Source: a candidate division WOR-3 bacterium (lineage in GTDB: Bacteria; Hydrothermota; Hydrothermia; B15-G9; WFZT01). Taken from it: a stretch of DNA of 64,000 nucleotides. The position numbers and the translations under genes were made by a program. The notes below the pieces were generated by a model. It was not told where the DNA came from. It searched no databases and worked only from the letters and a program-made list of their open reading frames with translations. Shown piece by piece: positions 13,000 to 63,764 of the stretch. Location: the NCBI GenBank assembly GCA_027053075.1, contig JALUEE010000033.1, forward strand, positions 96,001 through 160,000, given 5' to 3'. Position 1 is the first letter of the stretch. Every line of letters begins with the position of its first letter.

Positions 13000-13188
13000 A
13001 TGAGTCTCGATAAGGAACTTCTTGATATACTTGTTTGTCCAAAGTGCAAGGGAGAGCTTGAGTACAGGGAAAAGGAAGATGTGCTCATTTGCCACAACTG
13101 CAAATTGGTCTATGTGGTTAAAGAGGACATACCCGTGATGCTCGTAGAAAAGGCTATTCCCTTAGATGAGTGGGAGAAAGATAAATGA
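13000..13188 (+). CDS. Trm112 family protein
   Basis: [14 protein letters not shown]...CHNC...Y...IPVML zinc-ribbon pattern; SD AGGAGG. Confidence 0.93.
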
Positions 13189-16100: not shown

Positions 16101-17060
16101 CGGGCATCTGGCCTATCCGGTGGCACGCGATACTATATCAGGATGTTTGAAAGCAAAAAGGATACCACCTATAGAAGAAACTGGGGAACAGATGTGGTGA
16201 GTATAACGTACCAGAAAGCCCCTGTGGCATTTTACTCCGGAGTAGTGGAGATCAGCAACTCTGATACGATAAGCAGAACATTCACTGTCCCGGTTTCATT
16301 GACCACCGGAAATAAAGCCTTTGCTTACATTTACAGAATGGGAGAGGTTGGACTGAGAGATTCCATCACAATTCTGCCTTCCACTGGTATTCCGCCGGGC
16401 AACAGGGGACCAACAATAAAGCTGTTTTTGAACGGAAAAGAACTTCAGGATTCATCATCTGTTCCACAAAATTTCTTGCTACAGGTTTACCTTTCAGATT
16501 CTGACGGCATAAATCTCACAAACAGTATATCACCTACGGTAAAATCGGGTATTCAGCTGGAAATAAACAACGACGCGGCAAACTCCATTGACCTCACCCC
16601 TTACTTTAATTACGAAAAGAATAGTTCAACGTCTGGCTACGCTATTTATCCCCTGAATCTCACAAATCCAGGGCTAAATCTCGTTAAAATCACAGCATAC
16701 GACAATCTGAAGACACCAACAGTCAAAACCTACTCACTCTACGTCCAAACGGCCGAAAACTTCAGATTACGCGATTTTTATATTTATCCAAACCCCATCC
16801 GTAACAGGAATGGGACGTACATCACATTTATTCTAAGCTCACCCGCAAGGGTTAGTATTTCAATCTATACCATAGCCGGCACTCCCATCTGGAAGAGTGG
16901 GGAGATGATGTTGCAGGAAGGATTCCACAAAATATACTGGAATGGGCGGGACATGGATGGAGATTATCCAGCCAATGGCCTATACTTTTTGACCTTAAAC
17001 GTAGAAGGAGCAAGCGGTGATAAAGTTCGGAAAATCGAAAAAATCCTTATCGCAAGATAA
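13185..17060 (+). CDS. C25 (gingipain-family) peptidase, PorU-like sortase, with C-terminal FlgD-Ig/T9SS-type domain
   Basis: Propeptide-like N-terminus, GLYKIS and [25 protein letters not shown], catalytic-like HG and SC, YVLLGDP, C-terminal YPNP...WNGRD...NGLYF. Confidence 0.85.
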
Positions 17061-18276: not shown

Positions 18277-18456
18277 ACTTGTGAAGGTAATTAATTATCA
18301 CTGTTCCACCAATGACAGTCAAGAACTGGACTCAATTTTGTGGAGTTTGGTTCTCTGATCCGATAATTGGAGGGGGGGTGATTTAATGTACACTATTTGA
18401 GGCCGCTCTTTTATGTGGAGTTGAAGCGACTTAAACCTGATTTTAAAATTCGTCTA

Positions 18457-20043
18457 ATGAGAAACCTAACTTTCTTATTAATGCTTGTGTTTTCCATTGG
18501 ATTCGCAGAAACTATTCCATTAAAGAGGGGGGATTTTGCAACAGGAGATTCTCATCCTGATAGCGCAGAGCTTCAGTGGCTTCTAAACTTTAACCTCATT
18601 CAGATTGGGGGAATAGGAGATGAGGCTCCGGATTCTGTGATAAACACACTTCGCTCATCAGGAGCAAAACTACTTAGTTACGAGTGGATGCCCGCTGGAT
18701 ATCATTATACCGATGGCTCACCGGATGACCCCTTTATGGCTTGGGTGTATTCCCGCAGGGATTCACTCACACTTAATCCCAATGGGCCATTCCCACATTG
18801 TAGCGATGCCGGGTACAACTGGTGTGAGGACTATTACTATGACCTTGCCATACACTCTCTTGTCTCAAGAAGAATAAACTACCTGCTCTCCTCTATTGAG
18901 GATTACGATGGCCTCTTTTTCGACTGGGCGAGCGGTGCATTCATTGATGAACGTGAGTACACCCCCATCAGAGACACCTTTTATAGCCGACACCCTGATC
19001 TGGTTTACTCCGCTGTCGTTGGGGAATTTTACAGAAGTCTGAAAGAGGCCGATTCTGCAAAACTAATAATGACCAACCAGGGATTTAGAAGATGTCAATA
19101 TATACTGCCATTTGTTGATTATGATATGACAGAAAGTTATGCCACAACAGATGAATATTTAGGCGATACAATATACATCGAGGGAATGGGCAGGCAGGAG
19201 GTGCCGAGAACCATTTATTATCCCGTTAGCGATGACTACAGAACAGGGCATATCGAAGACCATATACATTATTTGAACGTTTTGAAACAATGTGGGGGTG
19301 AGCACGGTGGAGAATATTTCAAGAATTTTGTCTATATGAACTATGCAGCGCCTGATTTTGTACCAACCGGAGATACTATCAACGGTTATGCAGTTTTTCG
19401 CCCTGAAGTTCCGAAAAATGCCATTTATTTTGCTTACGTGATCCCAAAACTCCTAAACTTTGTGGTCTATACAGAAACACCATGGAACCACATGTATGAG
19501 CGTGATAGCATATATTTTTATGATTTAGGAGAGCCTCTGGGTACATCTTACGACAGTCTTGGAAATCATGTTTATGTCAGGTACTACTCACAGGGGTTTG
19601 TTGTCGCAGGTGAATGGCAGGAGACGACTCAGGTGCACATTGAGTCGCAGTTCATACCTTCCAGTATACCTTTTTACGATGCATATGAGCAGCAATGGGA
19701 TACAACCGGTGTAAATGGTGTGGACTTCCTAATAAGACCACAGTACGACAGCCTTATCGGCAGAATGGCGCCATCCGGTCGCGTTTTCCTCTATGATTTA
19801 GATTATACCGGCATTAGTGAATCAAATCCCCCCGGCATCCTGGTCAAAGATGGACTTTACATCCCGTCAAAGCATGTGAAAAGAGTGAAGATATTTGATG
19901 TAGCAGGGCGTGTTGTATTTGACTCAAAAGTACCAATGGACAGGAAAGTATCTATACCGCTGAAAAATGGCGTGTTTTTCTTAGAATTTATGGGGAATAA
20001 CGGTCAGATTCTGGCAAAGAGGAAAATAGAAATAATCAAATGA
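18457..20043 (+). CDS. Secreted protein, possible TIM-barrel glycoside hydrolase-like domain, with T9SS-type CTD
   Basis: Signal peptide; YDGLFFD, TNQGF and DMTES motifs; C-terminal KIFDVAGRVV...NGVFFL..KIEIIK. Confidence 0.65.
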   Translation: MRNLTFLLMLVFSIGFAETIPLKRGDFATGDSHPDSAELQWLLNFNLIQIGGIGDEAPDSVINTLRSSGAKLLSYEWMPAGYHYTDGSPDDPFMAWVYSRRDSLTLNPNGPFPHCSDAGYNWCEDYYYDLAIHSLVSRRINYLLSSIEDYDGLFFDWASGAFIDEREYTPIRDTFYSRHPDLVYSAVVGEFYRSLKEADSAKLIMTNQGFRRCQYILPFVDYDMTESYATTDEYLGDTIYIEGMGRQEVPRTIYYPVSDDYRTGHIEDHIHYLNVLKQCGGEHGGEYFKNFVYMNYAAPDFVPTGDTINGYAVFRPEVPKNAIYFAYVIPKLLNFVVYTETPWNHMYERDSIYFYDLGEPLGTSYDSLGNHVYVRYYSQGFVVAGEWQETTQVHIESQFIPSSIPFYDAYEQQWDTTGVNGVDFLIRPQYDSLIGRMAPSGRVFLYDLDYTGISESNPPGILVKDGLYIPSKHVKRVKIFDVAGRVVFDSKVPMDRKVSIPLKNGVFFLEFMGNNGQILAKRKIEIIK

Positions 20044-26085: not shown

Positions 26086-28086
26086 TCACCTCAATTTGAT
26101 AACTTTCCCTTCTATGGTTTTGTTCAAGCCATAAAAGTAAATTCCCTGTGGAGCTGGTTTACCGTTTTCGTCCCTTCCATCCCATTCAGCATGTCCATTT
26201 TTGATGGGAATTTCTCTCACGAGCCTGCCTGAGACGTCCAGAATCCGGATTTTTCCCGATTTGATATTTGAAGGTGTGAGGAAACTTAATCTATTAGAAA
26301 ATGGATTGGGAAATGCAGAAATAGTGAGAATATGTGAAGGCGAAATGTGTTCGGATACACCTACGTTTAATCCAAGCCACTGCAATACACGTCTTAATAC
26401 AACTGTTCTTCCCGCATAGGTTGGTGGCAATTCACCGAGTCCCTCTATCCCAAAGCTAAAGAAGACCACCTTATAAGCTCCACTATATCTCACACCTGCG
26501 ATTGAGTCAGTGTAGCCATTGTATGTAAACACCGGGTATGCATCTGCAGTGGGTTGTATTACATCCTTTGAAGTCTGGTTCATTGCGCTATTTGGACCAG
26601 ATGTAACAAGGCTCAGGCTGTTCCCTATAGGGTCGCCGTTCACACCATTTATGAATATACCGGCAAAATTTGGAGCCACGAAGCTTGCGTGCAAATAATT
26701 GGATAAAAATGAATTACCAGCGATGTTCTCTGCTATGTTCTGGCCTGTGATAAAGAGATTACCTCCCTGATTTAGATACGCGGTTAAAACGTTTATCTCA
26801 CCATTTGTCAATGAATTTGTAGTACTGTTGCCCGTGAACCACAGGACATACGGGTAATTTGCCAGCCAATCGGCAGTAACATTACCTTCACTGACTTGAT
26901 CCCACCTGTCATATATCGTTAATATCGAATCGAGATTGGGATATATGAAGTCCTCATAATGGTCACCTTCATCATCGTCAATGACTATAAGTTGCGGGAA
27001 ACCGATTTCAAGGGATATCGGTATGTCAATTGTATAGTTCTGTGCCTCGATGTGCAGATTAAAGCTGGCTATGTGCACTTCTGCATTTGAGCTGACATTT
27101 ATAACAAATGGATCTGATGAATTGTCAGCACTGCTTCCTGATGGAATGTCAGGGTAACTGGAAACGGAGTCAACTACATTAACCGATGGGTCTGTGGTGC
27201 TTAAATATGCGGTAACGTTATTGGCATCCTGATAGTAATTCTCGTTGGCAATGGTGATTATGATATTAGCATTTTCACCAGGTTCAACACGGCCATTGTT
27301 GTTCCCTGCTGAGTCATCAACCCGAAGGCCGGCAACATAAAGATTGGGATGGTTAATGGTAATGTGGCTGCCTGTAACCTGCAAAATTGCCTTTGTATTG
27401 TCATCCTGGAGAAACACTAAAAATTCACAGTTGGGAATTACCCACAACGTATCAACAGTAAAGGCCTGAGTATCAACTACGACCTGACCCGAATCAATTG
27501 AAATAGGTGTGCCATTTACATTTGGCAGCATGTCACGGAAGACATAATTGTGAACGCGCTCACCGTTTGGTGATGTGAAGTGAATATTAGACTCCACAAT
27601 TGCATACCTCAATTTTAAGTTGTTGTAGTTCACAGCTCTATCTGCCTCTATTGTGGTTATCATGTATCCAGTTCGATGTGCATCATCATAGTTAATTTCA
27701 AGTGTAAGGTTGATTGGTGTTACACTCCCCAGTTCGTTTAGTGTTAAGTTTTCCCAGGTTGAATACTGGTATCTTCCGTCAATGTTTCCGTTCACAAACA
27801 GATGAGGAGTGTAATTAACACCATAGTAGTTTATCCTCGCTCTGTTTTCCGAAATGTTGTATAAGTAAAATGGGTCACTGCTGTTTGGCCACCAGGCGTG
27901 ATATTTTATACCGTAGACACCACTACTTCCGTGGCGAGCTATTATTGTGTCAAACTCCGCATCAGCAGGGGGACAGGATGGGCAACCATTATTGGTCACT
28001 TCTTCAAGTAAAACGTGCTTCGTGTAACCTGAAAGTGTCCCAATCACCAGGATTGGTAAAAAGATTTTATACAGCAAACTCCTCAT
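26086..28086 (-). CDS. Omp28-related thioredoxin-fold secreted protein with T9SS-type CTD
   Basis: VLLEEVT..GCPSC, YHAWWP..DPFY, YYGV..TP, HNYVFRD; C-terminal FPNPF..ILDVSGRLV..WDGRD..GIYF. Confidence 0.85.
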   Translation of the reverse strand: MRSLLYKIFLPILVIGTLSGYTKHVLLEEVTNNGCPSCPPADAEFDTIIARHGSSGVYGIKYHAWWPNSSDPFYLYNISENRARINYYGVNYTPHLFVNGNIDGRYQYSTWENLTLNELGSVTPINLTLEINYDDAHRTGYMITTIEADRAVNYNNLKLRYAIVESNIHFTSPNGERVHNYVFRDMLPNVNGTPISIDSGQVVVDTQAFTVDTLWVIPNCEFLVFLQDDNTKAILQVTGSHITINHPNLYVAGLRVDDSAGNNNGRVEPGENANIIITIANENYYQDANNVTAYLSTTDPSVNVVDSVSSYPDIPSGSSADNSSDPFVINVSSNAEVHIASFNLHIEAQNYTIDIPISLEIGFPQLIVIDDDEGDHYEDFIYPNLDSILTIYDRWDQVSEGNVTADWLANYPYVLWFTGNSTTNSLTNGEINVLTAYLNQGGNLFITGQNIAENIAGNSFLSNYLHASFVAPNFAGIFINGVNGDPIGNSLSLVTSGPNSAMNQTSKDVIQPTADAYPVFTYNGYTDSIAGVRYSGAYKVVFFSFGIEGLGELPPTYAGRTVVLRRVLQWLGLNVGVSEHISPSHILTISAFPNPFSNRLSFLTPSNIKSGKIRILDVSGRLVREIPIKNGHAEWDGRDENGKPAPQGIYFYGLNKTIEGKVIKLR

Positions 28087-33599: not shown

Positions 33600-34508
33600 T
33601 TATCTCAAAAATATAAATTTCTTCCGTTCAACTATCCCCTTCTTGCTCTCAATAACCATCATGTACACACCTGTGGGGATGTCCGGGCTCACCCTCTCAA
33701 TAATCTCGTTTGAGGGTGCTCCGTAATGCTTTTTGAACACCAGTGCCCCGTTGGTTGATACAATCTTCAAATAATAGTCCGTTATGCCGGCAGGCTTGAT
33801 AAAACTAATCGTCCTTCTAAAAACCCCCTGTGCGGTGTGAAGTGTCTGGGGTATTGTATCATGAGGTAGCGTATCATTTGGCAATGTATCCTGTGGCAGC
33901 GAATCCACAAGAAGAGGATATCTTATGGGAGTGTAGTGATACCTGTAATATGAGGTGTATCTCAGGTCGAGACCTGTAGTAGACGGGCCTGGGCGCCGAT
34001 CAGTGGCCTGAAATATATACAGTCTTGTGTGTGAGGAATCAGCCCATTGATAGAATAAAACCACGTGATGGTGTGGCCTATTGATGGCATCTCCCATTTT
34101 TAGAGAATCGTAAGAAATAGGATGTGTGATGTCCGGGAGCATGGCAGTACTGTACTTGTGAGGTAATTGCCACACTATAGTTATTAAGCCTGAGCAATCC
34201 TGGCCTGTTGCCCATGAGGGATCACCACCATAGGATATGCAATCATTGTCAGAATGTGAGCCCGCCCTCTGTCCCTGTGCGAGCTTCGCGAGAAATCTCG
34301 TGGGGTCATCCCAGCCTCCAAACTCATAGGCAACTCCATGATAGGTGTGCCCAACCTGGTAATCGGAATGCCAATCGGGGCAGTATGGAACCGGTGCCGC
34401 ATTTATTGAATCGCAAACCCACTCAACATTTGCATTGGAAAAGGCCGAATCAATCACCTCCTGCCTCGGAATAACCAGCATCAGTGCAATCAATAGTGCA
34501 TTCACCAT
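33600..34508 (-). CDS. Secreted NlpC/P60-like cysteine hydrolase with T9SS-type CTD
   Basis: GVAYEFGG, GQDCSG, GDAIN..HHVVLF; LPxDT repeat linker; C-terminal GVYMMVI..KKFIFLR. Confidence 0.7.
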   Translation of the reverse strand: MVNALLIALMLVIPRQEVIDSAFSNANVEWVCDSINAAPVPYCPDWHSDYQVGHTYHGVAYEFGGWDDPTRFLAKLAQGQRAGSHSDNDCISYGGDPSWATGQDCSGLITIVWQLPHKYSTAMLPDITHPISYDSLKMGDAINRPHHHVVLFYQWADSSHTRLYIFQATDRRPGPSTTGLDLRYTSYYRYHYTPIRYPLLVDSLPQDTLPNDTLPHDTIPQTLHTAQGVFRRTISFIKPAGITDYYLKIVSTNGALVFKKHYGAPSNEIIERVSPDIPTGVYMMVIESKKGIVERKKFIFLR

Positions 34509-35257
34509 GTCACCTCCAGGATTTCAACTCCTTCCTCAAGATAGTTAACAATGTAGAGTGCGCCATCCCCCTCAATTCTGTAGGGTGGCCCATCCATCTG
34601 TGCAAAAAATATTGGCTCCCACCTGTATTCTTCTTTGCCATGTTTGAAATAAAAATTGCCACCTTTGAATCTCAAAAGTACAGGAATTCTACTGTTATCA
34701 TAACCGACAACTGCTCCAGCCCTGGTATCCGTCGGGTCACCTTTGAGAAAATCCGACTTTGTCAAATTCCCTTTAAAGAGCGTAAAGAATGTTTCGATAT
34801 TTCCTTTGTTTGCCGAGCTATACTTGATAAACATCACGTTGTTAGAGAAATCCTTGAGGAAATTTACAGAGGCCCCAACAACGGGAGCACTTACCCTGAG
34901 GACAGATTTCTCCACCAATTTACCATGCTCCATTCTTGCAATGGTGATGGAGTCCCAGTCTGAGTTCGCAAGATACACGTTCCCTTGCCAAAGCACGATA
35001 TTGTCAAAGTATCCATCGAGTTTCCAGCTATCTTCAAAACTTCCATCCCTTCTAAAGAAAGCTATTCTTTTGTTGTAAATATCGAGGAATGCAATCCTGC
35101 CGTCTTCAACGTCAAATGCAAGAGGTCCCATATTGGGTCCTGCGTCCTCTTCCACCTTGAGCATAATTCCAAGCCGTCCATCTCCACTGCCCCACGGGAT
35201 CATAAGGGTATCCACGTGCAGGCTCATGATTGCAAGCAAAATTAGTTTAATCATCAT
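34502..35257 (-). CDS. Hypothetical exported protein, possibly beta-propeller
   Basis: Signal peptide, beta-rich, GP..FDV..G.I..LD..NKRI; overlaps both neighbours. Confidence 0.6.
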   Translation of the reverse strand: MMIKLILLAIMSLHVDTLMIPWGSGDGRLGIMLKVEEDAGPNMGPLAFDVEDGRIAFLDIYNKRIAFFRRDGSFEDSWKLDGYFDNIVLWQGNVYLANSDWDSITIARMEHGKLVEKSVLRVSAPVVGASVNFLKDFSNNVMFIKYSSANKGNIETFFTLFKGNLTKSDFLKGDPTDTRAGAVVGYDNSRIPVLLRFKGGNFYFKHGKEEYRWEPIFFAQMDGPPYRIEGDGALYIVNYLEEGVEILEVTW

Positions 35258-36456: not shown

Positions 36457-37394
36457 GGTACAATCCTTGTGCCTCCTTTTCCGTGGATTGCTTCGAGGGA
36501 CAAATCAAGTGACGTAATGATAACCTCATCTCCACCATTTTCAAGGAATTCAATCGCAGCTTCTACCTTGGGGCCCATACTTCCTGGGGGGAACTGACCT
36601 TCCGCGTAATGCCTTTTTATCTCGTCGAGGTGGACTTCTCTTAGCTCCCGCTGAGTGGGCTTGCCAAAATCGAGATAAACGTAGGGAACTTCAGTGAGTA
36701 TAACGAGTTTCTCGGCCCCGATATTGCGTGCCAGCACTGCTGAAGCAAGGTCCTTATCAATTACCGCTTCCACTCCTCGAAAACCTCCATCCTCCTTTAT
36801 GATCGGAATTCCACCGCCACCTGCTGCAATTACAATCTCACCATCATCTACAAGTTTCTTGATCTCCCCTGCCTCCAGCACCTCGAGGGGCTTCGGAGAA
36901 GGAACCACAACTCTATACCCACGGTTGGCGTCATTTTTAAAGACCAGTGATGGAAATTTCTTCTTCAGTTCGAGCATCTCACTCTCTGTGAAAAAGTTAC
37001 CGATGGGCTTTGTGGGGTTTCGAAAAGCAGGGTCATTTTTATCCACGATCACACGAGTAACGACAGTGGTTACATGCCTTCTCATATTCAGCTCTGCCAT
37101 TCGATTTGTGATGGCAAGGGAGATGATATATCCCATCCATCCCTGAGTCTCCGCATTTAATACATCAAGCGGATAGGGTGGATATTTATCCCTTGCAAGT
37201 ATATTGCGGAAAAACTCAACCCCTACCTGTGGACCATTGCCGTGGGTGATGACTATCCTGTAACCTTCCCTAATTAGTTCAACAATTGGTACAAGCGACC
37301 TTTTAGCCCTGTTATACTGATGCTCGATGGTAAAAGTCTCACCTTTGCTTCTCAGTGCATTTCCACCAAGAGCGATGACGACTTTTCTATCCAT
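36453..37394 (-). CDS. arcC: Carbamate kinase
   Basis: ALGGNA, THGNGPQVG, PTKPIG, GGGGIP, EAVIDKD and GSMGPK motifs. Confidence 0.96.
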   Translation of the reverse strand: MDRKVVIALGGNALRSKGETFTIEHQYNRAKRSLVPIVELIREGYRIVITHGNGPQVGVEFFRNILARDKYPPYPLDVLNAETQGWMGYIISLAITNRMAELNMRRHVTTVVTRVIVDKNDPAFRNPTKPIGNFFTESEMLELKKKFPSLVFKNDANRGYRVVVPSPKPLEVLEAGEIKKLVDDGEIVIAAGGGGIPIIKEDGGFRGVEAVIDKDLASAVLARNIGAEKLVILTEVPYVYLDFGKPTQRELREVHLDEIKRHYAEGQFPPGSMGPKVEAAIEFLENGGDEVIITSLDLSLEAIHGKGGTRIVP

Positions 37395-37767
37395 TTTCTC
37401 TCCTCTCAATCACAACCACAGCAATGGCATGATGCTCAGTGTGAGAAAGACTCACATCTACGTGGGCACCATTCAGAAACTCAAGAGCTTTACCGTATAG
37501 TCTCAAAATCGGCTTCCCGCTTGGCAAATTTATTACCTCAATGTCAATGAATCTAACTCCTTTTCTCATACCAGTTCCAATTGCTTTAGAAAACGCTTCC
37601 TTTGCCGCAAATCTTGCGGCATAGCACTCCTCATAGTTTTTTCTCTTTTCACACTCTTCGATCTCGGCCTCTGTGAAAATCCGTTTCTTAAATTTTTCTC
37701 TGTGCCTTTCAAAGATCTTCTTCAGTCTATCAATTTCAACAAGGTCAACACCCACAAAAATCGGCAT
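37387..37767 (-). CDS. acpS: Holo-ACP synthase
   Basis: GVDLVE, RFAAKEAFSKA, GKP and SLSH motifs. Confidence 0.96.
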   Translation of the reverse strand: MPIFVGVDLVEIDRLKKIFERHREKFKKRIFTEAEIEECEKRKNYEECYAARFAAKEAFSKAIGTGMRKGVRFIDIEVINLPSGKPILRLYGKALEFLNGAHVDVSLSHTEHHAIAVVVIERRENG

Positions 37768-40245: not shown

Positions 40246-41082
40246 TCAGGGAACGAATTTGAACGTAACAGTATGGGTAAGTGGCAGGTCCGGATTATAC
40301 CACAGTGCGTAATCAAACTGGAACTTTCTGACCTTAAGCCCAACGCCGCTGGTGAACCTAAAAAGAGAGCCCTCACTCATCAGTCCGGCACGGAGTTTTG
40401 CAAATTCCAGAACCTTAACTTCCTCTCCAATGGAAATTCTCACAGGATAGTCCTTTGATTCTCTGAGTTCAAATGATGTCAGCGAATACCTGCCACCCTT
40501 GAAAGAGACTCCACCCTGAATCCAGAATGGTAGCTCTTCGGTGCCTGTTTGAGCCGTAAGCCTCGGATTATTCAGATTGTGAATGGAAAACCCAAGGCTC
40601 CATCTATCATAAATCTTTGCAAGAACACCAAAATCAATGCCAAAAGTGGTTGCATTTCCAAGATTCATGGGATTCTGGAGATGATAGACATTGAGGTTGA
40701 AACCGGCATATAAATTTGACGAGACGGGAAATCCATGCGAAAGCACGATGGTATTCTCAGCATAGGTCTCATTATCAAACTGCGCTGAAAGCCTCAGAAT
40801 AGAGACTGCAAACTTGCGATTGAGGATTTTGAGAGGTCCATACTGGAGTGTCAGCCCTTTTAGTCCGGCTCCGAGTGAGGAGTAAAGGTAGTTGTAATAG
40901 GCTGATATTTCGCGACCGTTCAGGGTAGCCGTAGCAGCGGGGTTAAAAATCACGCCTTCCACGCCCTCTGCGATGGATGTGTAAGCATTGGCAAGGGCAT
41001 CGGAGCGTGAGCCTGAGTAGTCAAACTCAAAGGCTGCATTCAAAAGAGAAAATGTGAGAATAACAATTCCTATCCATTTCAT
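40246..41082 (-). CDS. PorV/PorQ-family outer-membrane beta-barrel protein
   Basis: GSRSDALANAY...FNPA, GIDFG, NLNNP, LRAG and FQFDYA motifs. Confidence 0.72.
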   Translation of the reverse strand: MKWIGIVILTFSLLNAAFEFDYSGSRSDALANAYTSIAEGVEGVIFNPAATATLNGREISAYYNYLYSSLGAGLKGLTLQYGPLKILNRKFAVSILRLSAQFDNETYAENTIVLSHGFPVSSNLYAGFNLNVYHLQNPMNLGNATTFGIDFGVLAKIYDRWSLGFSIHNLNNPRLTAQTGTEELPFWIQGGVSFKGGRYSLTSFELRESKDYPVRISIGEEVKVLEFAKLRAGLMSEGSLFRFTSGVGLKVRKFQFDYALWYNPDLPLTHTVTFKFVP

Positions 41083-41138
41083 ACCCCACAATTATAATTG
41101 ACCTTCCTCAAAATATACAAGCTGGGGGAAAATGAGGA

Positions 41139-55000: not shown

Positions 55001-55371
55001 TTCTTTATTATCATGATCTCAAACTTACCTCTGTCCGAGATAAAGTAATTGAGAATCGTACTGATGATGGACATAAATATGGCTCCAATGAATGCGGCCC
55101 AGAATCCGTGAATTTCAAATCCCTCAACAACGCTCGCGGTGATGAGGAGCATAATCGCATTGATTACAAATGTGAAAAGCCCGAGAGTGAGAAAATTCAG
55201 TGGTAGGGTAAGAATCAGCAAAATGGGGCGGATTATGGCGTTCAGGATACCGAGAACAAGAGTTGCTATCAAAAGTGAGAAAATACCATGGATTTCAATA
55301 CCTTTGATAATCCAGGCTGTAACAGCAAGGGCTATGGCTGAAACAAGCCAACGAATAACAAATCCTCTCAT
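54997..55371 (-). CDS. YvlD/DUF360 (phage holin-like) membrane protein
   Basis: LNAIIRPILLILTLPLNFLTLGLFTFVINA motif. Confidence 0.9.
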   Translation of the reverse strand: MRGFVIRWLVSAIALAVTAWIIKGIEIHGIFSLLIATLVLGILNAIIRPILLILTLPLNFLTLGLFTFVINAIMLLITASVVEGFEIHGFWAAFIGAIFMSIISTILNYFISDRGKFEIMIIKK

Positions 55372-55605
55372 AAATAACCTCCTCCGAAGTTGTGAGAATT
55401 ATACTCACAAACCAACCATATTCTCAAGATACGGATGGATGGGCTTAGAGATGTGACTTTCTTTTGTGTCTTACTTTTTGAGCAGTGAAGGAGATTTTTG
55501 ACGGATGCCGGCCCCTTGACAGGTATGGGTTTGACTTTATTATATACAAACTCCCCATTATGGATACATCTTTCCTGGGAAAAGGCATAACCCCTAAAAA
55601 TCGGA

Positions 55606-56844
55606 GTGGGAAAAGGAATGAACCTTAAAAACTCATATCCTGCAATAGTTGTCGGAGCTGGCCCTGCAGGATCCGCGGCCGCTTTGACCCTTGCAAAAAA
55701 TGGTATTGAAACGCTTTTAATTGAGAAACAACGTGAAGTTGGAAAAGACATATTCTGCGCAGAAGGTATCTCAGTAAACACGCTTAATCTCACAAAAAAT
55801 ATTTTCGGAATCGAGAACCCGGAGAAGTTCATTGCTTCAAAAATTGATACTCTTAGAATCATTGCCCCGGACTTAGATTACTTTGAGGTATATAAAGACG
55901 ATATGAGTGTTGTACTTGAGAGGAAGATATTTGACCGAACCCTTGCTGAAAAGGCGGCGGCAGCAGGTGCAGAGCTTTCTGTCAGTACAAAATTCCTGAG
56001 GGCGGAGCGTGATAACGGACGCATAAAAATTGAAGTGTTAAAAGACGGGAAAGTACATGAAATTTTCACAGATTTGCTGATTGGTGCAGATGGGCCGGGC
56101 TCAGCTGTAGCCACATCGCTTGGCCTCAACATGGAGGTTTCCGAGCAGGATGTCCACAAATGCGCTCAGTTTCTTGTTTACGATGAGAAGATTCCATCAA
56201 ACAGAATGGATTTTCTATTCTCTGAAAAATATTCACCCACCGGCTACGCCTGGGTTTTCCCCAAAGGTCGCGGGCTTGCCAACCTCGGAGTGGGGGTAAC
56301 CGTTGAAACCAATAAAGACCCCATGGATTATTTAAAAACTATCATCAGTGAATTTTATCCGAATGCAAGAATCATAGGATGGCTCAGGGGGGTGGTACCT
56401 GTAGGAGGAAACTTAAAAAAGATTTATACAGATAACCTTCTGGTGGTTGGAGATGCGGCGCGCCTTGCTGACCCTGCCACAGGTGGAGGCATTGCTACTG
56501 CGATAATCAGCGGTAAAATTGCCGGTGAAGTCGGAGCCGAGGCTATCAAAAAAGGCGACCTGAGTGAAAAATTTCTCAAAAAATATGAAAAAAATTACTG
56601 GAACGAAATCGGACTTGACTATAAAATTTCATTAATTCTCAAAGACTATTTGAAAAACTATACAGATGAGCGGATAATTAAACTATACAGGGTTCTAAAA
56701 AAACTCTTCGCCGGTAAAAACCTGCAAACGCTAAACCTGAGTGAGCTCTTTTTTAACAGTGTAAAAAATTCAAAAGAGATACTCAGCCTTCTTCTTGGGA
56801 GTGGAGGTGATGTTGTCAACAGTTTACGAAAAGTTATTTTCTGA
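55606..56844 (+). CDS. Geranylgeranyl reductase family (digeranylgeranylglycerophospholipid reductase-like)
   Basis: VVGAGPAG, CAEG, LERKIFD, GADG, GYAWVFPKG and VGDAA...PATGGGI motifs; start may be ATG 55618. Confidence 0.88.
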   Translation: MGKGMNLKNSYPAIVVGAGPAGSAAALTLAKNGIETLLIEKQREVGKDIFCAEGISVNTLNLTKNIFGIENPEKFIASKIDTLRIIAPDLDYFEVYKDDMSVVLERKIFDRTLAEKAAAAGAELSVSTKFLRAERDNGRIKIEVLKDGKVHEIFTDLLIGADGPGSAVATSLGLNMEVSEQDVHKCAQFLVYDEKIPSNRMDFLFSEKYSPTGYAWVFPKGRGLANLGVGVTVETNKDPMDYLKTIISEFYPNARIIGWLRGVVPVGGNLKKIYTDNLLVVGDAARLADPATGGGIATAIISGKIAGEVGAEAIKKGDLSEKFLKKYEKNYWNEIGLDYKISLILKDYLKNYTDERIIKLYRVLKKLFAGKNLQTLNLSELFFNSVKNSKEILSLLLGSGGDVVNSLRKVIF

Positions 56845-57532
56845 CTCGACTGATCCTGGTGTCCTGATTCTTATAGACCCGGACAAAGTGAACAGGAATG
56901 AGGTGGAGGAACTTATTGCGAAAATCAACAGTCATGACCGTGTTAAGGCGATTCTCGTCGGAACAAGTGTTCTCCTGTCGGAAGATTTCAATGAATTCGT
57001 TATGAGGGTGAAAGAGGTTTCAAAATACCCTGTTATCATATTTCCTGGCAATTCGTTACAGGTCTCTAAAAACGCAGATGCGTTTTTATTGCCTTCACTT
57101 ATCAGTGGAAGGAATCCAGATTTTTTGATCGGAGAGCATGTAAAAATTTCGGTTTTCTTAAAAAATTCAGGAATTGAGGTAATACCAACTGGTTACATGC
57201 TGATTGAATCAGGCAACTACACATCGGTTGAATATATCTCTTTCACAAGACCAATACCACGTGAAAAGATAGATATAGCTATTGCCCATGCGGTTGCTGG
57301 TGAGCTACTCGGCCTGAAATTGCTTTATCTTGAGGCGGGCTCCGGGGCAAAATTCCCGGTGCCACCAGAGATGATTAAAAGCGTTGTGGATTCTGTTTCT
57401 ATTCCGGTTATTGTTGGTGGTGGCCTTAGAACTAAAGAGGATGTGGAAAACGCACTTGCCTCAGGTGCAAGACATGTGGTCATAGGTACTGCTTTTGAGG
57501 AGAATCCAGAGATTCTCCGGGAGGTGCTATGA
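56810..57532 (+). CDS. Geranylgeranylglyceryl phosphate synthase (group II-type)
   Basis: LIDPDK, FPG, SLISGRNPDFLIG, IPTGYMLIE, YLEAGSGA, VGGG and VIGT motifs. Confidence 0.92.
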   Translation: MLSTVYEKLFSDSTDPGVLILIDPDKVNRNEVEELIAKINSHDRVKAILVGTSVLLSEDFNEFVMRVKEVSKYPVIIFPGNSLQVSKNADAFLLPSLISGRNPDFLIGEHVKISVFLKNSGIEVIPTGYMLIESGNYTSVEYISFTRPIPREKIDIAIAHAVAGELLGLKLLYLEAGSGAKFPVPPEMIKSVVDSVSIPVIVGGGLRTKEDVENALASGARHVVIGTAFEENPEILREVL

Positions 57533-58209
57533 AAGTAATTGAAAAAACAAGAATTACGTTGAAAGAACTCAAAGAAAACCCTAAAATTCGGCACTTTGTT
57601 AAAAAGGCTGACGAGACGCTGGCCGCTCTTGGGTACACCGAGCATGGGGAGAGGCATGTTTCCCTCGTGGCTCAGAGAGCGGGAAAGATTTTAAGGGAGT
57701 TGGGGTACCCTGAAAGGATGGCAGAGCTTGCCGAAGTGGCAGGCTATCTCCACGATGTGGGAAATCTAATCAACAGGGAGTATCATGCACAGACCGGTGC
57801 AGTTCTCGCTTACAAAATCCTTGAAGAGATGGGCATGGACTACGAGGAGCTTGCTGAGGTGATGATGGCAATTGGGAACCATCATGAGGAAGACGGTGTC
57901 CCCGTATCACCAATTGCTGCTGCCCTCATTCTCGCAGACAAGTCCGATGTTCATCGCTCGAGAGTTAGGCCCATCGGAAACATCAAGGAAGATATACATG
58001 ATAGGGTAAACTATGCAGCAACTTTTTCAAAAATTATTGTCGATAGGGAAAATAAGGTCATCACTTATAAAATTCAAATTGACACCGAGATTGCTCCTGT
58101 AATGGAGTATTTTCAGATCTTTCTCTCAAGGATGCTCATCGCGTCCAAGGCAGCAAAAAGATTGGGGTGCAAATTTGAGCTGATTATAAACGACACAAAA
58201 ATGATTTAA
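57529..58209 (+). CDS. HD domain phosphohydrolase
   Basis: GYTEHG.RH, LHDVGN, IGNH, ADKSDVHRSRV and DIHDRVNYA motifs. Confidence 0.9.
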   Translation: MKVIEKTRITLKELKENPKIRHFVKKADETLAALGYTEHGERHVSLVAQRAGKILRELGYPERMAELAEVAGYLHDVGNLINREYHAQTGAVLAYKILEEMGMDYEELAEVMMAIGNHHEEDGVPVSPIAAALILADKSDVHRSRVRPIGNIKEDIHDRVNYAATFSKIIVDRENKVITYKIQIDTEIAPVMEYFQIFLSRMLIASKAAKRLGCKFELIINDTKMI

Positions 58210-58242
58210 TTCCCGGAAAAACCCAAAGGAGGTAAGGATAAT

Positions 58243-59514
58243 ATGACTCTTCAGGAGTTAAGGAAGAAAAAGATTGGTGAGCTTTACGAAATCGCCAAAC
58301 AACTGAATATCGTAAATTACTCAAGTTACAGAAAAGAGGAATTAATTAAAAGAATCCTTGACGCATTTGCGGAGAAAGAAGGTAAACAGTTCAGGGAGGG
58401 TGTGCTGGAAATCCATCAGGAGGGCGGATTCGGATTCCTGAGGCTCAAGGAGTACAACTACAATCCCAGCCCTCAGGATATTTACGTCTCTCCCTCGCAG
58501 ATCAAGAAGTTTGGCTTGAGGCCCGGAGACGAGATCAGCGGGCTTGTGAGACCTCCAAAGGATAGCGAGAAATTTCCAGCACTCATAAAAATCGAGGCAG
58601 TGAACGGAGTTTCGCCTGAGGAAGTTCGAAACAGGCCAAGCTTCGAGAAACTCACTCCCTTCTACCCAACGGAGAAAATCAACCTCGAGATACCTGACGC
58701 AGAAGACCTATCCATGAGAATCGTGGACCTCTTTGTTCCCATCGGTAAAGGACAGCGTGGACTTATTGTCTCTCCCCCGAGAGCCGGTAAAACGGTATTG
58801 CTCCAGCAGATTGCAAACTCTATCAAGAGAAACCATCCAGAAGTTTACCTCATCATCCTTCTGATTGACGAAAGGCCAGAGGAGGTTACAGACTTCAAAC
58901 GTAAGGTCGAGGCAGAAGTTATTAGTTCCACGTTTGACCAACCTGCTGAAAAGCATACACACGTGGCTGAGATTGTGCTTGAGAGGGCAAAGAGACTTGT
59001 GGAAGTTGGAAAGGATGTGGTCATCCTTCTTGACTCACTCACACGTCTTGCGAGGGCCTATAACGTGGTAACTCCTCATTCTGGTAGAACTCTCACAGGT
59101 GGTATTGACTCTACAGCTCTGATTAAGCCCAAAAAGTTCTTTGGCTCAGCAAGAAACATCGAGGAAGGTGGAAGCCTCACAATTATTGCAACAGCATTGA
59201 TCGAGACGGGTTCACGTATGGATGATGTGATCTTCGAAGAGTTTAAGGGTACCGGTAACATGGAACTTGTGCTCGATAGGAGACTTGCGGACAGGAGAAT
59301 CTTCCCAGCAATTGATCTCAACAAATCCGGTACGAGGAGAGAAGAGTTACTCCTTCCCAAAGACGTTTTGAATAAGGTATGGATCCTGAGAAAGGTTCTC
59401 TCCGAGATGAATCCAGTGGAGGCTATGGAGTTCCTGCAGGAGAAGATGAGACTGACGGTAAGTAATCAGGAATTTCTTAAAAGCCTGACGGAGAGTAAAT
59501 TCTCTTATGTCTAA
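58243..59514 (+). CDS. rho: Transcription termination factor Rho
   Basis: [31 protein letters not shown] and [10 protein letters not shown] motifs. Confidence 0.98.
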
Positions 59515-61189
59515 TCTATTTGTTCTTTTGATGGCGGCAAACTTCCTGTTTCCTCTCAGGTTGCCGCCCCTCATAACTGCTGGTTTTGGTGAGTTTAGAA
59601 TCCTCCGGTTTCACGCCGGAGTTGACCTCTCGACACTCGGTAAAACAGGTTATCCTGTACGTGCTGCGGCAGATGGCCATGTAGTTCGCATACGCGCATC
59701 CTACTGGGGATACGGTAAGGTCATTTACTTTCAGGATGACAGTACTGGACACATCTTCGTTTATGCCCATCTCTCAAGATTTAGACCCGAACTCGAACGC
59801 TACGTTTACGAAATTCAAAAGAAACAGAAAAAATACAGTGTAAACGATTTCCCGAAGGATACTTTTTACTTCAAAAAAGGGCAGATCCTGGCTTGGACTG
59901 GTAAAACTGGCACGAGAACTCCCCATCTTCATTTTGAAATCCGGAATAAGGAAAATGAGCCCGTAAATCCATTCTTCCTCTACCACCTGCCAGATACAAC
60001 ATTCCCGGCGGTTGATTCTTTAAGGGTCATCTCTTGTAAGGACGGCGAGATATATTCACAATCAGTTGCCAGAAATGGGGCCATCCTTCACGCAAAGAAG
60101 CCTTTCATCATCGAAGTCATCGCCTACGATCCTGTAGCACGTGAAAATGTTACAAATCCATACAAAATTGAGCTCTGGTCTGGTAAAGAGCTTGTTTATG
60201 CAGTTGAATTTGACACATTCAATTACAGCTATCAGAGGGCTGCCGGAGTCTTTTACAGTTTTGAGGGCCCAAGAGGGGGAAAGAAGTGGATCAGACTGTG
60301 TAATCCCTTAGATTTCACCAATCCATTCCAGCTAAAGGCACCTCGTTGCTATAAAAAATTCGGGAAATACAGGCTCGTTGTCAAAGATTTTTACGGACAT
60401 ACGACCTCTCTAAGCTTTGAGATCAAAAAGGGAATAGATGCTCCGGACACCGCAGGTTATCAGATTAAAACCCCGACTGTCAGGCTAAAATTCAGACCCG
60501 ACGGTGTTTATGCCATTGGAAAGTTCGAACTCAAGAAAGGCAAGGTCGTCAGAAAATTCAATAACGGTGTCAGAAAACTCGACGGTAAAAACGAAATTAT
60601 TCTGGTCTCAGGCAAAGATACCCTTAAAATTCAAAAGGCCACTCTAAGTGTTGATGGGGACACGGTTAAGGTCGGTCCCTACACCATCGGGGAGATTGAT
60701 AAGGGACTCCTTTTCAACTCCAACGTTTATTACCTGCATTTTAAGGGTAAGGACTACATATTTCCCGAGGTATTGCCCATCAATAGACGTATGATGCTTG
60801 CCAGAAACTCAGCTCCAAAAGTGGGAATTTTCAGCTACGACGAAAGGCACAATAAATGGGATTTCGTGGGCAAAGATACAAGTTACGTCATCTCCTTCGG
60901 GGCATTCAAAATGCTCAAGGACACTCGACCTCCAACGGCAAAATTTGTCACAATCTCACGCAAGAAGATCGAAATTAAACTTCACGATAATCTTTCAGGT
61001 ATCAAAAGCGATTCCATAGTATTTTATCTTGACGGCAAATGGGAGCCGGTTCATTACTATTTTGACCTGAAAAAGCTCGTCTATTGGCCGCCATTTAAAA
61101 TCAAAAGGGGCAGGCATACTTACAGACTCATAATTTCCGATAATCTCGGAAATGTTAAAGACCTGCGCGGCACAATTGTCATAAAATGA
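59507..61189 (+). CDS. M23 family metallopeptidase
   Basis: FGEFR..RFHAGVD, YAHL and PHLHFEIR motifs. Confidence 0.9.
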
Positions 61190-62001
61190 AGAAGCCACGC
61201 TCAAAATTAGGCCAGGTCTTTTTAAAGGACAAAAATATACTGGATAAAATCGTAAGGTATGCCGGTGTCAGGGAGGGGGAGTGGATTCTTGAAATCGGCC
61301 CTGGACGCGGGGCACTCACAGAATTTCTATTGATGCGTGGTGCCAATTTAATTGCTTTCGAAATTGACCCAAAACTGGTCTCAGAGCTCAAAAAAAGATA
61401 CGGCTTACTTATTGGTGATCGGCTGATTGTTGTGGAAGAAGATTTCCTGAAGGCTGACCTCAAGGAAAAGCTAAAAGAACATGGGATTCCTGCTCCGCTC
61501 AAAGTGGTTTCTAATATCCCTTATTACATCACCACCCCCATCCTTGAAAAGCTTATCAGGGATAGGGAGCTTTTCTCCGAAATTTATCTTACTATCCAGA
61601 AAGAGGTGGCAAGGAGATTGGTGGCATCACCTGACACAAGCGAGTATGGCTCTCTAACCCTTTACCTTGCCATGTTTTTCGACATTGAGGTTCTTTTCAA
61701 CATACCCAAAACCTGTTTCAGACCCATACCAAAGGTTGATTCGGCCTTTGTGAAAATGAGGGTGCGGGAGAAACCTCCGATAGAGGTGAGTGACCCGAAA
61801 TTTCTGGAAAAACTGATCAGATTTTCATTTGGTGGGAGAAGGAAGAAACTCAAAACTGTTTTGAAGCACAATTTTGGAAAGCTTGAATTCGACAAAATTG
61901 AGAGTGAATCAGGGATTTCTCTGGACAGACGTGGAGAGACCCTCTCCCTTGAAGAGTTTGAAAAGCTTGCAAGGACAGTAAAAGACCATCTCAAAAAGTA
62001 G
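61186..62001 (+). CDS. rsmA: 16S rRNA dimethyladenosine transferase
   Basis: LGQVFL, EIGPG.G.LT, NIPYYIT, QKEVA.RL and F.P.PKVDS motifs. Confidence 0.96.
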   Translation: MKKPRSKLGQVFLKDKNILDKIVRYAGVREGEWILEIGPGRGALTEFLLMRGANLIAFEIDPKLVSELKKRYGLLIGDRLIVVEEDFLKADLKEKLKEHGIPAPLKVVSNIPYYITTPILEKLIRDRELFSEIYLTIQKEVARRLVASPDTSEYGSLTLYLAMFFDIEVLFNIPKTCFRPIPKVDSAFVKMRVREKPPIEVSDPKFLEKLIRFSFGGRRKKLKTVLKHNFGKLEFDKIESESGISLDRRGETLSLEEFEKLARTVKDHLKK

Positions 62002-62174
62002 GGTTTAGACTAACTTCTATTACTCATAATGCATGAAACCCATCTCACGCATAAGATACGCAGGGGAATTATTGTCCTATCCTTCTTGGTGAAAAGAAGT
62101 GTTTCAAGATACATGGCCATTGGTGAATTTTTTGAAACACTGGCAAGAATTTGCCTGCTCGACTCAGAAAAAAA

Positions 62175-62610
62175 CTTCCTCTCCCCGCATAAATTCTTGC
62201 GGGGAGGGGATAAAGGTGAGGGGGTCACATTTTAAAAATTCCTTTCAAGCAAAGATTAAGCTCCCTCTCCCGCTCCGCGGGAGAGGGTTGGGGTGAGGGC
62301 CTACAACTTAAATTTTTTCAAGCGGAAAGCCCTCTCCCTTGCCTATCCCCACAAGTTCCGCTTGTGGTAGAGTTTTTTTTGAACTTGCATTTGATGTAGA
62401 ATATTTTTAAAAATTCCCCACTCACCCATGATTTATGCTTAAAAACGGCAAATTCTCTAATATTTTAAGCCACTTTTCTTTCCCCATTCTCTCCTAACCT
62501 CTCTTTCCCGAACGGAGGAGGGGAAATTCTTGGCTTTCACGCAAAGGTTACGTCCCTGCTGGTTTAAGCGAGAATAAAACTCTCTCCCTTCCCCGGGGAG
62601 GGGAAGTTCC
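62175..62610. repeat. Cluster of REP/BoxC-like hairpins (families A and B) between convergent rsmA and carA
   Basis: Includes CCCTCTCCCGCTCCGCGGGAGAGGGTTGGGGTGAGGG and a CCCCATTCT..CCT..GGAGGGGAAATT unit resembling 41580-41626. Confidence 0.78.
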
Positions 62611-62651
62611 ATAACTCAAGATCTTACGAACTTGCACTTCTCTAAGTATGC

Positions 62652-63764
62652 TCAAAAAGTAGATTCGATCAGGTTGTAGAATTCTTGAAAGAGATATATA
62701 GAATCATGGGGACCGGGTGAATCTTCCGGGTGGTATTGAACAGTGAAGAATTTACGCTCTTTGTCTCTGATACCTTCAAGGGTGCCATCGTTTAGATTTA
62801 TGTGGGTGATTTCAGCGAGTCCCTCCATGCTTTTTATTTCAATGGCAAAGCTATGATTCTGGGCAGTAATTTCCACATGCCCGGTCTCGAGGTTCTTAAC
62901 AGGATGATTAGCCCCTCTATGACCAAATTTCATCTTATAGCTCTTACCCCCGAGAGCAAGAGACAAGATCTGATGACCGAGACAGATTCCGAAAATAGGC
63001 AGCTTCCCTATTAGATTGCGGACATTCTCAATAGCATATTTGAGGGGCTCCGGGTCTCCCGGACCGTTGGAAAGAAAGACTCCGTGTGGTTTCATGTTAA
63101 GCACATCCTGCCACGGAGTACTGGCAGGCACTACAAAGGTCTCGATTCCAAGAGAATTCATTATTCTCAGGATGTTTTTCTTCACACCAAAGTCATAGAC
63201 AACCACCCGATATTTCCATCGTGTGGGCTTTTCGTAAGTTTTGCCGTTCCACATACCTTCCCGAAAAAGATAGGGCTCCTGGGTTGTAACCTGCTTCACG
63301 AGGTCCCTGCCCTTGATATCCGGAATTTCCCGCGCCACTTCCACTGCCTTTTCAGGAGAAATGTCTTTCGTGGTAATATAGACACGCATGCTTCCCTTCT
63401 CCCTGATGCGCTTTGTTATTGCTCTGGTGTCCACACCTTCAACTCCTGGAATTCCATAGGTGTTGAGAAAGCTGGAAAGGTCTCCCGTGGCCCGGTAGTT
63501 CGAATAATGCTTTGAGAGTTCTTTTACGATAAATCCTTCAATCCAGGGCCTTCTCGATTCGAGGTCATCTTCATTTATCCCGTAGTTTCCAATCAAGGGG
63601 TATGTCATCAAGACCACCTGCCCTTTGTAAGAGGGGTCGGTGAGTATCTCCTGATAGCCACTCATTGAGGTATTAAAAACTATTTCCCCACGCGCATCGG
63701 TGTATGAGCCAAATGCACGTCCGATATAGTATGAGCCATCCTCAAATGCAACGATTGCTTTCAT
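62652..63764 (-). CDS. carA: Carbamoyl-phosphate synthase small subunit
   Basis: GYQEILTDPSY, SNGPGDP, GICLGHQ and VQYHPE motifs. Confidence 0.97.
   Translation of the reverse strand: MKAIVAFEDGSYYIGRAFGSYTDARGEIVFNTSMSGYQEILTDPSYKGQVVLMTYPLIGNYGINEDDLESRRPWIEGFIVKELSKHYSNYRATGDLSSFLNTYGIPGVEGVDTRAITKRIREKGSMRVYITTKDISPEKAVEVAREIPDIKGRDLVKQVTTQEPYLFREGMWNGKTYEKPTRWKYRVVVYDFGVKKNILRIMNSLGIETFVVPASTPWQDVLNMKPHGVFLSNGPGDPEPLKYAIENVRNLIGKLPIFGICLGHQILSLALGGKSYKMKFGHRGANHPVKNLETGHVEITAQNHSFAIEIKSMEGLAEITHINLNDGTLEGIRDKERKFFTVQYHPEDSPGPHDSIYLFQEFYNLIESTF

Follow-up and report, generated by a model that had tools for sequence, protein, structure and literature searches.

Overlapping geranylgeranyl reductase and geranylgeranylglyceryl phosphate synthase genes in a WOR-3 bacterium: a further conserved case of archaeal-type ether-lipid genes beside a bacterial ester-lipid pathway

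Whether a free-living cell can keep phospholipids of the archaeal and the bacterial kind together has long been asked in relation to the lipid divide, to LUCA (the last universal common ancestor) and to the origins of eukaryotes, and mixed lipids also matter where archaeol serves as a biomarker for archaea. The question is raised by two genes in a 64,000-nucleotide stretch (the window, G000:C33:96001-160000) of a WOR-3 bacterial genome (2.44 Mb, 95% complete, 3.6% contaminated). An earlier note on this DNA described a geranylgeranyl reductase (GGR) gene overlapping that of a group II-type geranylgeranylglyceryl phosphate synthase (GGGPS) at the head of a gene run, and suggested saturated isoprenoid ether lipids and a mixed membrane. 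The pair is confirmed by intact open reading frames (ORFs) and family models, and the interpretation is supported. We propose, with moderate confidence, that the two enzymes likely work with an unlinked digeranylgeranylglyceryl phosphate synthase (DGGGPS) to make saturated isoprenoid diether phospholipids of the archaeol type beside fatty-acid ester lipids; the gene content suggests both the saturation and the mixed membrane.

Both ORFs lie on the plus strand. The GGR ORF runs from GTG at 55606 to TGA at 56844, and the database gene call (P0001, 55618..56844, 408 aa) begins at ATG 55618, which is most likely the start. The GGGPS gene (P0121, 56810..57532, 240 aa) extends from ATG 56810 to TGA 57532, and the two genes overlap by 35 nt. 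GGGPS scores above the cut-offs of TIGR01769 (165 vs 161.55 bits) and PRK04169.1-2 (253.1 vs 247), and the GGGPS_Afulg model gives it just 47.2 bits. Its matches among PDB proteins are 4jej (203.8 bits), 4mm1 (142.1), the group I enzyme 2f6u (37.7) and PcrB 3vzx (33). Residues D23, S53, V85 and Y142 align to D25, S54, V86 and W141 of 4mm1. In group II enzymes a metal-binding Asp (D25 in Methanothermobacter) and a limiter (V86 in the same enzyme, I90 in Flavobacterium johnsoniae) tuned to C20 have been described (PMC9385802), as has the position of the residue that anchors the hexamer (PMC7888582). All 29 aligned GGGPS proteins of the phylum keep D23 and have V, L or I as the limiter, and 27 of them have an aromatic anchor. 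The nearest relatives of the enzyme are bacterial, not archaeal. The synthase is a group II GGGPS by family membership, predicted to be a hexamer, and would transfer a C20 chain. A preference for heptaprenyl diphosphate, which the earlier note had named as a ground for abandoning its interpretation, is contradicted by the group II assignment, by the presence of Val85 where a C20 limiter is proposed and by the protein not being of the PcrB type.

The GGR protein scores above the cut-off of the GG-red-SF subfamily model TIGR02032 (215.6 vs 158.8 bits) and has 3oz2 as its best PDB match (E 6e-50). The motifs described for the family, namely GxGxxG, a catalytic Cys, RxxFD, PxxYxWxFP and an LxGD-like element (PMC10821996), are all present, as GAGPAG, CAEG, RKIFD, PTGYAWVFP and VVGD; among 37 GGR homologs of the phylum the Cys motif occurs in 37, RxxFD in 34 and PxxYxWxFP in 26. 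The best equivalog model was DGGPL_Thplmales (192.8 bits, vs 82.4 for MenJ and 69.5 for ChlP), with all scores under their cut-offs. The curated cut-offs for digeranylgeranylglycerophospholipid (DGGGPL) reductases, whose models describe narrow archaeal clades, were not reached (192.8/780, 142.9/580 and 76.5/700 bits), and neither was that of MenJ (82.4/700). Homologs from beyond the phylum that carry a name are for the most part DGGGPL reductases of Methanosarcinales, and identity to the Methanolobus enzymes is ~39%. Close homologs of GGR and GGGPS carry the labels WOR-3 or Ca. Hydrothermia, from which the phylum of the surveyed genomes is likely WOR-3; in the tree, the GGR of one genome of the same class (G006) and a protein with the Ca. 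Hydrothermia label are identical, and two homologs near family f9 bear Thermotogae labels that are taken as mislabels. The tree, which has no outgroup, groups most sequences by family, as expected from vertical descent. The protein is probably an archaeal-type GGR, and it is co-occurrence with other ether-lipid genes that suggests its action on DGGGPL.

This co-occurrence was surveyed in 151 genomes of the phylum, including this one, by single-protein queries unless stated otherwise; the genomes are kin and not independent, and no p-values are given. GGGPS was matched in 98 genomes, GGR in 84, DGGGPS in 97 and sn-glycerol-1-phosphate dehydrogenase (G1PDH) in 61, the last before two partial matches (G001 and G109, ~81 bits) were dropped ahead of counting. 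Both GGGPS and DGGGPS are present in 91 genomes, GGGPS without DGGGPS in 7, the reverse in 6, and neither in 47. GGGPS and GGR are found together in 79, with 19 genomes carrying only the synthase and 5 only the reductase. G1PDH is present in 55 of the 98 GGGPS-positive genomes vs 4 of the 53 negative ones; in these four it belongs to nucleotidyltransferase/phosphotransferase clusters, and in f20, f28, f30 and other families its contexts are unrelated. All four genes are present in 46 of the 151 genomes. Within the host class, GGR, GGGPS and DGGGPS are found in 24 of the 38 sampled genomes and the complete set of four in 16. The GGR gene is directly upstream of the GGGPS gene in 38 of the 79 genomes carrying both, in 11 families, so the pairing is not due to chance. 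Families f6, f10, f14, f19, f21 and f31 are without the four-gene set, save weak GGR matches in one f6 genome, and f4 has GGR, GGGPS and DGGGPS and no G1PDH. In f11, three of five genomes have a divergent GGGPS and no match to GGR, DGGGPS or G1PDH. One such divergent gene (L334:4672-5382, G112:C44) encodes a protein with 36% identity that has lost the FPG motif, and it still precedes the HD-domain and rho genes; it is possibly a decaying or repurposed copy. Families f15 and f17 have a ferredoxin gene before GGR and ispE after GGGPS, an arrangement of which the host class has neither part, and a tandem ferredoxin-GGR duplication ahead of GGGPS-ispE was observed in f17 (L450, G014:C3:11000-22000).

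The linkage was looked for outside the phylum as well, and no specificity to WOR-3 is claimed for it. Among 80 loci of an all-species collection GGR stands beside GGGPS in 3, all from this phylum by sequence, and it was found in the available flanks of none of 77 GGGPS loci from other phyla, mostly Bacteroidota. Whole-genome searches outside the phylum gave an unlinked GGR in 2 of 5 cases, and none of the 110 GGGPS loci searched had a DGGGPS match. Further lipid-gene linkage is seen within the phylum: in G127 the DGGGPS gene adjoins those of a short-chain prenyl synthase and dxs (L333:3229-5303, G127:C125), and in G053 the G1PDH gene adjoins fabH and lies 2 kb from a short-chain prenyl synthase gene (L332:2820-6825, G053:C7).

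The other ether-lipid steps are encoded away from the pair. The earlier note had placed DGGGPS, G1PDH and CarS outside the window and, indeed, none of the 51 window ORFs matched the Pfam families UbiA, Fe-ADH or CarS at E<=1e-6 (7 of the 51 had no family at all), and the queries hit other contigs only. Four UbiA proteins were found in the genome: one MqnP-like, one MenA-like, one unassigned and one DGGGPS-like. The last (G000:C72:13493-14320) removes the possibility, raised in that note, that the genome has no DGGGPS; its best PDB match is Methanocaldococcus jannaschii DGGGPS 6m31 (E 3e-25) and it has both DGGGPS Asp motifs, which are absent from the three other UbiA proteins. Of these, motif 1 is present in 29 and motif 3 in 28 of 30 homologs from the phylum. 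A glycerophosphodiester phosphodiesterase gene (L002:2268-2981, G000:C72) overlaps the DGGGPS stop codon, a neighbour that is not conserved in the other loci viewed. A G1PDH-like gene (C90:43124-44164) has PRK00843 as its best NCBIfam match (225.9 bits), and its residues D167, H248 and H265, which we take to be zinc ligands, are invariant in 10 of 10 aligned proteins. A CDP-alcohol phosphotransferase gene and an inositol-phosphate synthase gene lie ~10 kb from it (L219:3594-5284, G000:C90:31593-33283). The best model of this phosphotransferase is archaetidylinositol phosphate synthase (152.5 bits, below the cut-off of 180), which makes it a candidate for an ether-lipid head-group step. The DGGGPS and G1PDH searches that the earlier note had proposed gave these homologs, and the one for a geranylgeranyl diphosphate (GGPP) synthase gave no clear candidate: the two trans-prenyl synthases of the genome are a short-chain enzyme of the farnesyl diphosphate (FPP) type (C86) and a long-chain one (C26). 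Genes of the methylerythritol phosphate (MEP) pathway (dxs, dxr, ispDF, ispE and ispH) were recognized from their motifs, with no match in the genome to that of ispG. CarS (PF01864) had no match in the genome, and the matches in 44 of the 151 were all weak and partial (best E 2e-6).

Gene identity, conserved residues, linkage and co-occurrence are the basis of the scheme that follows, in which activities, expression, chain length, backbone chirality and abundance are extrapolated. C5 units would come from the MEP pathway, and a trans-prenyltransferase would supply the prenyl donor, assumed to be GGPP. The G1PDH-like enzyme encoded on C90 may provide sn-glycerol-1-phosphate (G1P). GGGPS would form the first ether bond and the DGGGPS encoded on C72 the second. 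Head groups may be added through the bacterial CdsA and CDP-alcohol phosphotransferases, which would replace CarS, as experiments in E. coli that are cited in PMC7852524 suggest. Saturation of the chains would fall to GGR, possibly with NAD(P)H as the reductant or with an unlinked ferredoxin, for which there is a gene at G000:C41:7357-7560. An extension to tetraethers (glycerol dialkyl glycerol tetraethers, GDGT) was rejected as there is no Tes: the best score was 46.6 of 450 bits here and none of the 151 genomes had a match at E<=1e-30, with three archaeal controls positive.

Several observations weigh against archaeol-type lipids as the product. The relatedness of the genomes means that the co-occurrence counts overstate the support. 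Among the 98 GGGPS-positive genomes, 43 have no G1PDH match and 19 have no GGR match at E<=1e-25. Unlike in f15 and f17, no ferredoxin gene stands beside GGR here. The DGGGPS on C72 is best matched by DGGGPS models yet falls below every NCBIfam DGGGPS cut-off. The G1PDH-like protein is below the PRK00843 cut-off of 413, its best PDB match is 3ce9, a clostridial protein named glycerol dehydrogenase, and its gene comes after a flippase-like gene and a nucleotidyltransferase gene in a glycan-type context. MenA- and MqnP-like genes are present in this genome, where GGR could accordingly act on quinones. The weakest link of the pathway is the prenyl donor. The C86 synthase scores above the FPP synthase model (315.3, cut-off 275) and below CrtE (312.4, cut-off 460), the long-chain synthase tracks quinone genes, and the GGPP synthase signature is in neither enzyme. 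The C86 protein has Phe at position -5 plus a two-residue insertion in the first aspartate-rich motif (FARM). We take the FARM insertion together with an aromatic -5 residue to mean FPP; a literature search for support of this meaning gave nothing. The combination occurs in the short-chain synthase of most of 57 genomes, GGGPS-positive or not. A dedicated GGPP synthase that tracks GGGPS was sought in the 57 loci, 2 of them without the motif, and none was found, the -5 residue failing to separate GGGPS-positive from GGGPS-negative genomes.

This FPP-type pattern here and in most of the 57 genomes makes C15 chains a real alternative. The same pathway may give a non-canonical product, with C15 or mixed C15/C20 chains, or with a sn-glycerol-3-phosphate (G3P) backbone where there is no G1PDH. 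A G3P backbone would fit f4, which has the three other genes, and the Cloacimonadota GGGPS accepted G3P too in vitro (PMC7852524). On the other hand, in six GGGPS-positive genomes (f18, f22, f26, f27 and f33) the synthase carries the type I GGPP signature of archaea and is not of the IspA type, the limiter residues of group II enzymes are tuned to C20 (PMC9385802), and archaeal lipids built on G1P were produced in E. coli that had no G1PDH gene (PMC7852524). We consider a non-canonical product unlikely, though it deserves attention. The signature in those six genomes, an aromatic residue at -5 and no FARM insertion (PMC9385802), was observed at L322-L327 (G008, G105, G015, G045, G080 and G095).

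The genes might also serve other ends: the making of only a minor mono-ether or non-membrane conjugate, as for Bacillus PcrB and the Bacteroidota GGGPS, or the rework or breakdown of scavenged archaeal lipids. The function of bacterial GGGPS products has been stated to be unknown (PMC7888582), catabolic reverse use has been raised for FCB (Fibrobacteres-Chlorobi-Bacteroidetes) bacteria (PMC6431249), and the divergent GGGPS that f11 retains without partner genes would fit a mono-ether or conjugate. We regard these possibilities as quite unlikely: DGGGPS follows GGGPS nearly one for one across the genomes, and an enzyme that makes G1P would, like a reductase, be a partner of biosynthesis, not of catabolism.

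GGR could instead saturate menaquinone or a polyprenol, as enzymes of the MenJ or A. fulgidus prenyl reductase type do, its position beside GGGPS being incidental. The quinone genes and the long-chain prenyl synthase of this genome fit such a role, and archaeal GGR paralogs with quinone specificity exist (PMC10821996). Across the phylum, however, GGR tracks GGGPS and DGGGPS, not the quinone prenyltransferases. MenA-like genes were found in 24 and MqnP-like genes in 4 of the 151 genomes; such a match is present in only 14 of the 84 GGR genomes, leaving 70 without, and in 7 of the 38 with the linked pair, and GGR is missing from 13 of the 27 genomes with these matches. The 31 linked-pair genomes that have no MenA or MqnP match argue against a quinone reductase, as does the MenJ score of 82.4 bits, lower than the 192.8 reached on the model of archaeal lipid reductases. 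Action on menaquinone, which the earlier note had listed as a threat to its interpretation, is therefore improbable. An origin of the pair in misassembly, or in a recent transfer from an archaeon that left the genes idle, can be set aside, being refuted by the order conserved in relatives from 11 families, by the 177.6-kb contig with its bacterial core genes and even GC content (0.41-0.46 in the 1-kb bins over the pair vs a contig mean of 0.444), by near-identical proteins on other database contigs and by the bacterial affinity of GGGPS.

The proposed archaeol-type lipids would be made beside a complete bacterial G3P ester pathway, for which PlsX, PlsY, PlsC, GpsA, FabF, FabZ and CdsA were found in the genome by family search and FabD, FabH and ACP by motif. 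A bacterium with archaeal-type lipids only was considered and rejected, as PlsY is present in 149 of the 151 genomes and PlsC in 5 of 5 tested. PlsX, present in 135 of the 151, was not found in 12 genomes of 93-100% completeness, all with linked GGR and GGGPS genes (G006, G013, G020, G026, G038, G043, G136 and G150 of f4; G068, G128 and G132 of f8; G130 of f2). In G006, of which 1,658,085 of 1,658,321 bases were searched, FabF, FabH, FabD, FabZ, ACP, PlsY, PlsC, GpsA, CdsA and a FakA-like gene are present; since fatty-acid synthesis, PlsY, PlsC and the FakA-like gene are kept, acyl-phosphate likely comes from another route. The gpsA gene was absent from the plsY flanks in 7 f17 genomes, and likewise in 5 of 7 control genomes.

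A wider proposal can be advanced tentatively, as a possibility that falls short of being probable. In WOR-3 bacteria, and above all in the class Hydrothermia, an ancient and vertically inherited set of G1PDH, GGGPS, DGGGPS and GGR may produce a naturally heterochiral membrane of saturated G1P archaeol and G3P fatty-acid esters, and these bacteria may be the first organisms with a natural mixed membrane for which direct proof from lipids is attainable. Strain sy37 (NBRC 116057, genome AP038914; PMC12285271) belongs to the host class according to PMC12542636, and its pure culture would be a route to such proof if sy37 has the genes. The available text and supplement of its description (PMC12285271) make no mention of lipids or fatty acids.

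The gene run led by the pair continues, as first described, with HD, rho, M23 and rsmA genes on the same strand, all recognized by Pfam or TIGR models. The HD-domain gene (57529..58209, PF01966) overlaps that of GGGPS by 4 nt (ATGA). It is followed by the genes for transcription termination factor Rho (58243..59514; TIGR00767, 656.9 bits, above cut-off), an M23-family peptidase (59507..61189, PF01551) and, last in the run, the 16S rRNA dimethyltransferase RsmA (ksgA; 61186..62001; TIGR00755, 253.6 bits, above cut-off). The HD gene keeps the same position in most loci of the class, also where GGR is missing (G112); it is a conserved downstream neighbour, and a role in lipid synthesis has no support. 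A sigma-70-like promoter is predicted at 55516..55543 on the plus strand (TTGACA-16-TATTAT, 11 of 12 consensus matches), the joint best among 12 sites in 55300-62700, with shuffled sequence giving 10.1, and a consensus scan placed a terminator-like hairpin with a T run 3' of rsmA (62349..62367, plus strand), predicted by position only. The counts of promoter-like and terminator-like sites equal chance, so it is the position upstream of GGR that backs the promoter. Co-transcription of the pair with rho and rsmA is likely, and this would make its expression as a housekeeping function likely too.

Elsewhere in the window, the acpS gene of the bacterial fatty-acid machinery, already reported there, was recovered at 37387..37767 on the minus strand (PF01648, 76.7 bits). 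Imperfect GC-rich palindromic repeats resembling repetitive extragenic palindromic (REP) elements, of the CTCTCCC...GGGAGAGGG type, were noticed by eye between rsmA and carA (62150-62370). An AIPR-domain protein (PF10592, 45808-47589, plus strand) is encoded in a low-GC stretch (0.33-0.37), and its gene is likely horizontally acquired and defence-related. A large peptidase C25 (gingipain-family) protein (13185-17060, plus strand) and an Omp28/FlgD-domain protein (26086-28086, minus strand) are typical FCB-type secreted proteins. At 11765-12988, 18397-20043, 33600-35257 and 40246-41091 lie ORFs of 250-550 aa that match no Pfam family at E<=1e-6.

The trait is already known from publications on Cloacimonadota and further bacteria of the FCB group; the operon described here is a real, conserved and well-supported further case. 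Villanueva et al. (ISME J, PMC7852524) reported GGGPS, DGGGPS and euryarchaeal-like GGRs from Cloacimonadota, from other members of that group and from candidate phyla related to them, in agreement, as regards GGGPS and DGGGPS, with the earlier note. WOR-3 is not named in the available main text of that paper. In the survey of Coleman et al. (2019, PMC6431249), the available text names only Firmicutes, Actinobacteria and Fibrobacteres as groups in which a single genome has the three core genes, and WOR-3 is a row of the table, in which the ticks are not legible. The available text of the WOR-3 survey PMC12542636 does not contain isoprenoid or geranyl terms. In the open literature, subscription papers not being covered, no paper was found on WOR-3 ether-lipid genes or on bacterial GGR-GGGPS linkage.

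Compared with known systems, the gene set is most like that of Ca. Cloacimonetes and the FCB bacteria in its group II GGGPS, DGGGPS, euryarchaeal-like GGR, MEP pathway, two polyprenyl synthases, full ester pathway and lack of CarS (PMC7852524). In the available account of Cloacimonadota, GGGPS adjoins DGGGPS and neither G1PDH nor CarS was found in the four metagenome-assembled genomes, whereas here GGGPS adjoins GGR, DGGGPS is on another contig and a G1PDH homolog is present. Both Cloacimonadota synthases were assayed, yielding unsaturated phosphatidylglycerol (PG)-archaeol in E. coli (PMC7852524); those described here are predicted from sequence. The best structural relatives of GGGPS by sequence are the group II enzymes of Flavobacterium johnsoniae (4JEJ) and Methanothermobacter (4MM1), with which the metal-binding Asp, the limiter and the phosphate-binding stretches align. 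The former is a dimer with a charged anchor residue, whereas Tyr142 at this position predicts a hexamer like 4MM1. Bacillus PcrB, a group I heptaprenylglyceryl phosphate synthase, belongs to the same enzyme family and also uses G1P; it differs in its match (33 vs 204 bits), in its acetylated C35 mono-ether product and in having no DGGGPS or GGR partner (PMC7888582, PMC9385802). GGR shares all family motifs with Thermoplasma acidophilum 3OZ2 and the Methanosarcinales DGGGPL reductases, and differs from them in its score below the equivalog cut-off (192.8 of 780), its bacterial host and the lack of an adjacent ferredoxin gene in the class; the Methanosarcina GGR was used together with its own ferredoxin (PMC12042123). 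Chitinispirillum and Chitinivibrio (Fibrobacteres) have G1PDH, GGGPS and DGGGPS in one bacterial genome, and homologs of the three are likewise together here; GGR is not among the genes of the available survey table (PMC6431249). Set beside the Cloacimonadota case, published without G1PDH and without a culture, the present one has a reductase tied to the ether synthase and G1PDH homologs that follow the pathway. The additions to the known trait are the conserved GGR linkage, the co-occurrence of G1PDH and, provided that sy37 has the genes, a cultured member of the class in which the lipids can be tested directly.

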